Of a stretch of DNA of 53,433 bases, positions 1 to 256 are shown in pieces. Below the pieces are notes generated by a model. That model saw only the letters and a list, made by a program, of their open reading frames with translations. It was not told the DNA's origin and did no database searches. The DNA comes from an uncultured Gammaproteobacteria bacterium (GTDB taxonomy: Bacteria; Patescibacteriota; Patescibacteriia; S139-126). Within the stretch, counting starts at the first letter, position 1. Every line of letters begins with the position of its first letter. The stretch spans positions 21,244-74,676 of the forward strand of contig CAZBLW010000002.1 of the NCBI GenBank assembly GCA_964493305.1, written 5' to 3'. The position numbers were made by a program, and so were the translations under genes.

Positions 1-97
1 GTTATTTCCAAGCTCACAATAATTATCTGTCATCTGGTGGGTTTGAGAGGAGTCGCCCGTCTAGCCTGGCGGCTAGCCGAGGCTGAAACCTCTGATC
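1..97 (-). repeat. Duplicated 3' part of tRNA-Val(TAC) plus downstream flank, with a 31-nt hairpin insert in the T-loop
   Basis: 1-55 is identical to 146-200. 87-97 (aacctctgatc) matches 201-211 (aacctctgacc). 56-86 is extra and contains the CTAGCC/GGCTAG stem. The repeat may extend past the window start. Confidence 0.9.
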
Positions 98-179
98 TTG
101 GTAATGCATTGGAAGATTCAATCAACAAAACAATTTTTATCTAAAGTTATTTCCAAGCTCACAATAATTATCTGTCATC

Positions 180-256
180 TGGTGGGTTTGAGAGGAGTCG
201 AACCTCTGACCTCCTCGGTGTAAACGAGGCGCTCTAACCAACTGAGCTACAAACCC
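180..256 (-). tRNA. tRNA-Val(TAC)
   Basis: Reverse complement folds as a cloverleaf: GGGTTTG acceptor stem, anticodon arm CCTCG-TTTACAC-CGAGG, GTTCGA T-loop, encoded CCA. Confidence 0.97.

Follow-up and report, generated by a model that had tools for sequence, protein, structure and literature searches.

Tandem partial copies of tRNA-Val(UAC) split by a small palindromic repeat in a Patescibacteria genome, a probable scar of tRNA-gene invasion

From our analysis of the start of the window (the whole stretch of DNA analysed, 53,433 nt, C2:21244-74676 of the source genome G000), we conclude that the DNA behind the tRNA-Val(UAC) gene probably consists of tandem, dead copies of the 3' third of that tRNA, each split by a selfish palindrome termed R1, and that it represents the scar of an invasion of the tRNA gene. 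R1 is a family of small selfish repeats, dispersed and patchy in Patescibacteria, and its members often lie directly upstream of genes for single-domain GIY-YIG (Ssn-like) nucleases. The evidence consists of the anatomy of the locus, the membership of its hairpin in the R1 family together with the covariation of the family's stem, an insertion point shared between tRNA contexts, and empty orthologous sites in relatives. The finding ties a solo palindrome of 31 nt to nuclease-plus-hairpin cassettes that invade tRNA genes of ultra-small bacteria, and to the Ssn nucleases.

The tRNA-Val(UAC) locus and its assembly

The intact tRNA-Val(UAC) gene, with its CCA encoded, occupies positions 180-256 of the window on the minus strand (ARAGORN; 75 bits with the Rfam tRNA model), as do all parts described below. 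Read in the direction of the tRNA, it is followed by a native-looking 3' flank of 34 nt (146-179), recognised by its likeness to the corresponding flank of the same-genus genome G002 (about 17 of 22 positions agree in an alignment made by eye), and by an AT-rich spacer of 47 nt (99-145), for which blastn-short against the whole genome found no second copy and which is thus specific to the locus. Then comes the split copy of the tRNA. Its first part, AGATCAGAGGTT (87-98), repeats the variable region, the 5' strand of the T-stem and T54-T55, and matches the tRNA at 11 of 12 positions. The R1 repeat TCAGCCTCGGCTAGCCGCCAGGCTAGACGGG (56-86), a GC-rich palindrome of 31 nt, breaks the copy between T-loop positions 55 and 56 and is followed by CGACTCCTCTCAAACCCACCA (35-55), which repeats tRNA-Val positions 56-76, i.e. 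the rest of the T-loop, the 3' strand of the T-stem, the 3' strand of the acceptor stem and CCA, with 21 of 21 positions identical. The 34-nt flank then appears a second time (1-34), as the beginning of the next tandem unit, truncated by a scaffold gap. Segments 1-55 and 146-200 are identical, with a period of 145 nt; the initial annotation, which had reported this 55-nt repeat and a 31-nt hairpin between GGTT and CGA, was accurate in both respects.

The distance between the tRNA and its copy is 81 nt and free of genes, and no terminator-like site was found between the two. No ORF of at least 60 aa occurs in window 1-487, and no GIY-YIG match lies near C2:21 kb in G000. The tandem units are non-functional partial copies, and the intact tRNA-Val gene has no odd T-loop. 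The apparent oddity belongs to selfish DNA lodged in a dead fragment and not to a tRNA that works.

The 47-nt spacer was considered in two other roles and rejected in both. As the decayed 5' part of a second tRNA-Val it would be expected to match the tRNA, but the identity before position 44 is about 25% in a hand comparison, i.e. random; as a mobile part shared between loci it would recur, which it does not anywhere else in the genome.

An insert placed precisely in a loop, with no target duplication, is reminiscent of an intron, and the copy might be read as a tRNA with a T-loop intron or as the 3' piece of a split tRNA that is joined into a second tRNA-Val. We regard this reading as scarcely credible. 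The 5' two-thirds of such a tRNA are missing upstream, ARAGORN and Rfam call nothing there, an intact tRNA-Val(UAC) gene directly adjoins, and the host is a bacterium, as judged from its IF-2, RNase Y, L19 and HU.

The left end of the window coincides with an assembly break, since a scaffold gap of 100 Ns (C2:21144-21243) ends just before window base 1. The initial annotation had suggested a look to the left of the window for further copies, and a third hairpin-bearing copy of the 3' end is indeed found beyond the gap (C2:21091-21143). It has the same hairpin and a different distal flank (GAAATATTTTT..., in tRNA sense GAAATATTTTTTTATTT...), so that the hairpin-bearing Val copy occurs in two distinct distal contexts. 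The final 55 nt of the contig left of the gap equal window 33-87. Elsewhere in the genome, contig C1 ends in exactly the 55 nt with which contig C3 begins, inside a repeat at tRNA-Thr(CGU), from which it follows that these two contigs are adjacent. Three overlaps in this assembly (left contig with window 33-87, window 1-55 with 146-200, and C1 with C3) are each exactly 55 nt long, and these identities are the junctions of a k=55 assembly graph.

This graph determines how far the array can be trusted. One explanation is a scaffolding or contig-edge artefact, in which the assembler would have made the duplicated flank, and perhaps the entire copy, at a short repeat. The initial annotation had itself named a contig-edge misassembly as a worry, and for the flank duplication the worry has substance: a 100-N gap precedes window base 1, the duplicated segment is the 55-mer at the gap and has the length of the other contig overlaps here, and its support within the window is one k-mer long. 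The artefact reading as a whole is very improbable. The graph edge leading from the 55-mer (34-nt flank plus 21-nt 3' end) into the hairpin implies that reads must span the flank, the 3' end and the hairpin. In addition, the hairpin-bearing copy has two differing distal contexts, a tandem unit that includes the flank lies within one contig at tRNA-Thr(GGU), and the same architecture is found mid-contig in another genome, G023. The cycle in the graph implies that two or more 145-nt units stand in tandem in at least part of the population. By this graph logic the Val array has at least two units, and it is entered from a distinct distal flank. The locus is not a pure artefact; it is the number of copies that is in doubt, and not that they exist. 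Three of the five assembly breaks (the Val gap, a gap at tRNA-Thr(GGU) and the C1/C3 junction) fall in arrays of hairpin-bearing tRNA 3' copies, so that such arrays account for three of the five contig or scaffold breaks of this near-complete genome.

The R1 family, split tRNA copies and GIY-YIG genes

In an alignment of ten R1 members the ends, TC[AC]GCCTCGG and AGACGGG, are invariant and the inner stem varies: it is CTAGCC/GGCTAG at the Val locus and CTAGAC/GTCTAG, CTAGGC/GCCTAG or CGCC/GGCG in other members. The repeat is 30-33 nt long and oriented, its conserved ends being asymmetric. The Val hairpin scored 45.8 bits (E 1.9e-8) with covariance model R1, which was built from the ten-member alignment, and folds as .....((((.((((((....)))))).)))) at -14.7 kcal/mol; the partial copy as a whole folds as a T-stem lengthened by the hairpin, at -27.1 kcal/mol (z -3.6). 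Among 86 matches to the model, 91.9% of the stem cells are paired, in an alignment that was fitted to the model and is therefore biased towards the structure; in slid controls the paired fraction fell to 22-55%. In the same stem, 42 cells are changed on both sides, compared with 11 in shuffles, and 0 of 500 shuffles reached 42. Rfam scans, both at gathering thresholds and at permissive E-values, returned no family for the R1 hairpin or for the larger module described below.

The model found six strong matches in G000 and nothing else comparable there, all six at tRNA fragments or at a GIY-YIG cassette beside tRNA-Glu. At tRNA-Thr(GGU) (C2:223523-223598) the copy reads TGCGGTT[TCCGCCTCGGCTACGCCATCCGGCGAGACGGG]CAAATCCGCACAACGGCTCCA and continues into the tRNA's own 34-nt flank, giving a repeat unit of 105 nt, flank included, within one contig; a second copy, slightly diverged and truncated, lies past another 100-N gap (C2:223739-223838). 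The repeat at the C1/C3 junction is a partial copy of tRNA-Thr(CGU), GTGGGTT[...]CAACTCCCGCGGTCGGCTCCA, with an R1 hairpin. At tRNA-Glu(UUC) (C1:47254-47323), two hairpins lie directly upstream of an 81-aa GIY-YIG ORF (C1:47352), the second being an R1 hairpin as at the Val locus. In G023, which belongs to another family of the same class, tRNA-Thr(CGU) is followed by a 21-nt spacer and AGAGGTCGTCGGTT[hairpin]CGATTCCGACAGGTGGCTCCA, with the same T-loop site as at the Val locus. All T-loop cases have the insert between GGTT and C(G/A)A, i.e. between positions 55 and 56, in one orientation. This insertion point is common to four tRNA contexts and to genomes of two families, and it could be used for testing how such hairpins move.

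R1 hairpins account for part of a wider pattern. The initial annotation had suggested that split T-arm copies be sought at other tRNAs, and they turned up behind 10 of the 47 tRNA genes of G000, each as a partial 3' copy broken in the T-loop. Three of the ten loci carry the R1 hairpin (31-32 nt, position 55/56). In the other seven (Glu, Gly, Arg, Ser, Trp, Asp and Gln) the insert is a larger structured module, about 70-140 nt long, at positions of about 57-59; it opens with the T-loop in inverted copy and closes with a small hairpin, immediately after which the tRNA 3' end continues. These seven lie at window 11381-11520 (Arg) and, in G000, at C1:47.78k, C1:113.7k, C1:167.4k, C1:285.9k, C1:546.0k and C2:225.46k. 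A partial 3' copy devoid of any module was not seen among the ten loci. The Val insert had been judged unrelated in sequence to the tRNA-Arg insert, which holds by inspection only. The further proposal of a general mechanism acting on tRNA T-loops stands in so far as the process is recurrent, but the inserts sit in dead downstream copies and not in working tRNAs.

Two of these loci have peculiarities of their own. The Gln copy with its module (C1:546008-546130) lies 8.7 kb downstream of tRNA-Gln(UUG) (C1:554745-554818), and the DNA between them is other DNA, possibly an island. Downstream of tRNA-Trp, at C2:225324-225412, there is a divergent partial copy that begins at the anticodon stem and has a different GC hairpin, of 25 nt, in its anticodon loop; the intact tRNA-Trp is itself closely preceded by a GIY-YIG ORF.

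Across the class, R1 matches are patchy and occur in 20 of 101 genomes, the source genome included (19 of 100 relatives), with the highest copy numbers in G048 (50) and G013 (25). Both same-genus genomes, G001 and G002, lack R1 in the covariance-model search. R1 members split D-arm fragments of tRNA-Glu in G030, followed by a GIY-YIG ORF, and other tRNA fragments in G090, G091 and G072; further members lie in a 23S-5S spacer, in intergenic DNA and inside an ORF. The initial annotation had read the Val and Arg inserts as two independent insertions. The Val insert is not a one-off: it is one member of a dispersed palindromic family with representatives outside tRNA contexts and next to mini GIY-YIG genes. 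Simple pattern searches were less informative: the exact hairpin pattern, sought in 60 relatives, matched in G000 only; loose patterns in genome and metagenome contigs gave mostly chance matches in GC-rich genomes and, after filtering, four useful matches of Patescibacteria type; and two scans of viral contigs gave chance matches in GC-rich phage DNA only.

The sequences on either side of the hairpins can form at least 5 bp with one another in 19 of 50 distinct contexts, compared with 11.1 expected (5 of 1000 shuffles reached 19). R1 thus moderately prefers the loops of existing stem-loops, which would make tRNA arms natural targets. The preference was not seen in the multi-copy subfamily of G013, whose 25 near-identical copies (e.g. 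L313-L323) lie within arrays of GTAATCC/GTAACTC heptamers, unlike tRNA loops.

The association with GIY-YIG genes is seen at several levels. G000 has six small GIY-YIG matches and one frame of 516 aa, the latter probably UvrC, and four of the six small ones stand beside tRNA genes with hairpin-split tRNA fragments. Mini GIY-YIG genes are present in 100 of the 101 genomes of the class. R1 hairpins lie within about 160 nt of GIY-YIG mini-ORFs in six genomes (G000, G023, G090, G030, G013 and G048), the distance being about 50 nt or less in four of these, while the chance of such proximity is about 0.3% per hairpin (a rough estimate from about six genes per megabase). There is no nuclease gene at the Val locus or at the two Thr loci, where the spacers are 42-81 nt long, unique and AT-rich, so that their link to the GIY-YIG cassettes is one of family resemblance only. 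The 81-aa GIY-YIG protein had nothing specific in a PDB sequence search or in NCBIfam.

Among other enzymes of mobile DNA, a Y1/RAYT gene (PF01797) had no match in G000 or in G013 with its 25 R1 copies. The only tyrosine recombinase gene of G000 (PF00589; C2:87070-87612), 65 kb away, encodes a protein of 327 aa that, from being single and from its size, we take to be Xer-like. We also considered an omega-RNA of the IS200/IS605-TnpB type, with a scaffold and a 3' guide equal to the tRNA 3' end, and rejected this candidate, as neither TnpB nor a Y1 transposase was found in G000.

Orthologous sites and the origin of the split copies

We compared the locus tRNA-Leu / tRNA-Val / small ORF / tRNA-Ala between relatives. 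The site behind tRNA-Val is empty, with neither the unit nor the hairpin, in G002 and in G005 of the same family. G001, of the same genus, has only a short degenerate remnant of a 3' end there, TCAAATCCACCAGA, and G004, of the same family, has a different short remnant. Similarly, G002 and G005 have an empty tRNA-Thr(GGU) site, and partial copies of other kinds occur at this site in G001 and G004.

These sites bear on the possibility that the split copy is a functional RNA made from the tRNA transcript: a T-stem with the hairpin and a free acceptor-strand tail, which might serve as a signal for processing or termination, as a decoy, or as a guide complementary in sense to the tRNA gene. The copy has the orientation of the tRNA, with no terminator-like site between, its fold is stable, the hairpin stem covaries, and both types of module stop exactly where the tRNA 3' end resumes. 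We nevertheless consider a functional RNA unlikely. Neither same-genus genome has the hairpin copy at its orthologous site (G002 empty, G001 with the remnant) and G005 is empty too; R1 is patchy, being found in 20 of 101 genomes; it also occurs outside tRNAs and in frame within an ORF; and covariation is equally expected for a DNA hairpin that is recognised as single-stranded DNA.

The split copies also resemble remnants of integration. The 21-nt repeat could be an attL/attR block and the hairpin an arm of an integrase-type element, as in CIME-like remnant att sites. A direct repeat of the tRNA 3' end from the T-arm onwards is the classic signature of integration into a tRNA gene, tRNA gene fragments arising from integration are documented (PMC9897764), and repeated integration can yield tandem att arrays. 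The resemblance to those fragments extends to the partial 3' copy forming a direct repeat beside an intact gene, but at the Val locus neither an integrase nor cargo separates the repeats, which are 81 nt apart with no gene between, and the fragment itself is split by a mobile palindrome. Moreover, the single tyrosine recombinase gene is distant and taken as Xer-like, about 12 nt of the tRNA are retained 5' of the hairpin, and R1 also occurs in ORFs, rRNA spacers and D-loop fragments, which argues against a T-arm-specific att arm. Remnant att sites are therefore a poor explanation, and we assign them a low probability. As split tRNA fragments mimic the att sites left by integration, they call for caution in the prediction of genomic islands.

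For the preferred reading, a scar of tRNA-gene invasion, we infer the following course of insertion and duplication. The hairpin, alone or within a nuclease-hairpin cassette, would enter the T-arm of a single-copy tRNA gene, where the DNA forms a stem-loop. The survivors would be those lineages that regained an intact tRNA gene, whether through a partial duplication or through recombination with an allele that was still intact, and the interrupted 3' fragment would remain behind the restored gene. The tandem array would then be built by re-invasion or by unequal crossing-over between the 21-55-nt repeats. Judged by eye, the distal flank resembles the next stretch of G002 and the 34-nt flank resembles the native flank of that genome, which puts the inserted block between them and agrees less well with a simple insertion into the T-loop. 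In addition, the final Val copy runs straight into GAAATATTTTT... with no homologue of the 34-nt flank, so that a simple model of homing into the T-loop would need an extra deletion of 26 nt.

A more specific version of this reading is tentative. R1 may be the cognate single-stranded DNA site of an Ssn-like mini GIY-YIG nuclease and may spread by seeking out loops in DNA that forms stem-loops, with the T-, D- and anticodon arms of tRNA genes as favoured sites, and invasion of a single-copy tRNA gene might then force a rescue duplication. If true, this would be a new mode of spread of selfish DNA, and it would explain the split tRNA fragments, the tandem arrays and the assembly breaks in Patescibacteria.

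Relation to known systems

The closest described system is that of the Ssn GIY-YIG nucleases with their hairpin repeats (NTS/SRM, 20-50 nt). Ssn proteins are single-domain GIY-YIG nucleases that cut single-stranded DNA beside their own oriented hairpin repeats, found beside the gene as well as scattered through the genome (Chenal et al. 2025, PMC11893778). The likeness lies in the tiny nuclease genes (about 80-100 aa) encoding a single GIY-YIG domain, in the oriented hairpin repeats that are both flanking and dispersed, and in the position of R1 beside GIY-YIG genes, directly upstream of the 81-aa one at tRNA-Glu and next to others in five further genomes. The differences are several. The NTS/SRM consensus CGTCATTCCCGCG...GCGGGAATC is, by eye, unrelated to the R1 consensus TCAGCCTCGGCTAG...CTAGACGGG; the main text of PMC11893778 has no mention of tRNA genes and none of Patescibacteria; precise insertion into tRNA loops and partial duplication of a target gene are absent from that paper; and the Val locus has no nuclease gene, cleavage at R1 being putative.

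Elsewhere in G000, a GIY-YIG gene (C2:316831-317052) lies between NTS-like repeats, GTCATTCC...GGAATGAC. In the region C2:316700-317230, the palindromes on either side of a 95-aa GIY-YIG gene, GTCATCCC.../GGATTCC...GGAATGAC, resemble the NTS/SRM repeats of Ssn.

Free-standing homing endonuclease genes offer a second comparison. SegB of phage T4 is the classic GIY-YIG homing enzyme in a phage tRNA gene cluster (PMC2330249), and mobile endonuclease ORFs of fungal mitochondria create gene hybrids (PMC3787672). Shared with these genes are selfish DNA at tRNA or other essential genes, with the gene staying functional, a displaced fragment of the target beside the restored gene, and empty sites in close relatives. 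The Val locus differs in being ORF-less, in that the common mobile part is just a 31-nt palindrome, and in its fixed T-loop junction.

Short mobile palindromes are also described from organelles, in PMC4478555 and works cited there: the GC clusters of yeast mitochondria, the PstI palindromes that flank tRNA genes in Neurospora and the double-hairpin elements of Allomyces. They resemble R1 in being short, GC-rich mobile hairpins in an AT-rich genome, patchy or polymorphic, found in tandem arrays and near tRNA genes, with a conserved hairpin structure in which changes fall mostly in the loops. They differ in being organellar, in having other sequences and, in yeast, in an AG target duplication, and no site-specific insertion into the tRNA loops of duplicated fragments is described for them.

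We found no description in the literature of hairpin-split tRNA fragments in Patescibacteria. New here are the R1 hairpin that stands alone, with no nuclease gene beside it, the insertion site fixed at T-loop 55/56 across four tRNA contexts and genomes of two families, the tandem arrays that break the assembly, and the moderate preference for pairing flanks.

Small palindromes that spread within genomes are familiar from other bacteria, as REP/BIME repeats with their RAYT transposases and as the Rickettsia palindromic elements, the latter of which can lie in frame in ORFs. R1 differs from the REP/RAYT system in that no Y1/RAYT gene accompanies it in G000 or G013, in that it has no GTAG head, and in that only six copies occur in G000. 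It resembles the Rickettsia elements at L257, a metagenome contig on which a tandem pair of R1-type repeats (398-480) lies in frame inside a gene that was taken, by eye, for one encoding a DNA glycosylase.

Two further tRNA genes of G000 are unusual in themselves. The tRNA-Ile at window 2708-2784 has the anticodon UAU (ARAGORN; Rfam 75.5 bits), which is unusual in bacteria, and a tRNA-like gene at C1:280395-280468 has a two-base anticodon (tRNA-??? in ARAGORN).
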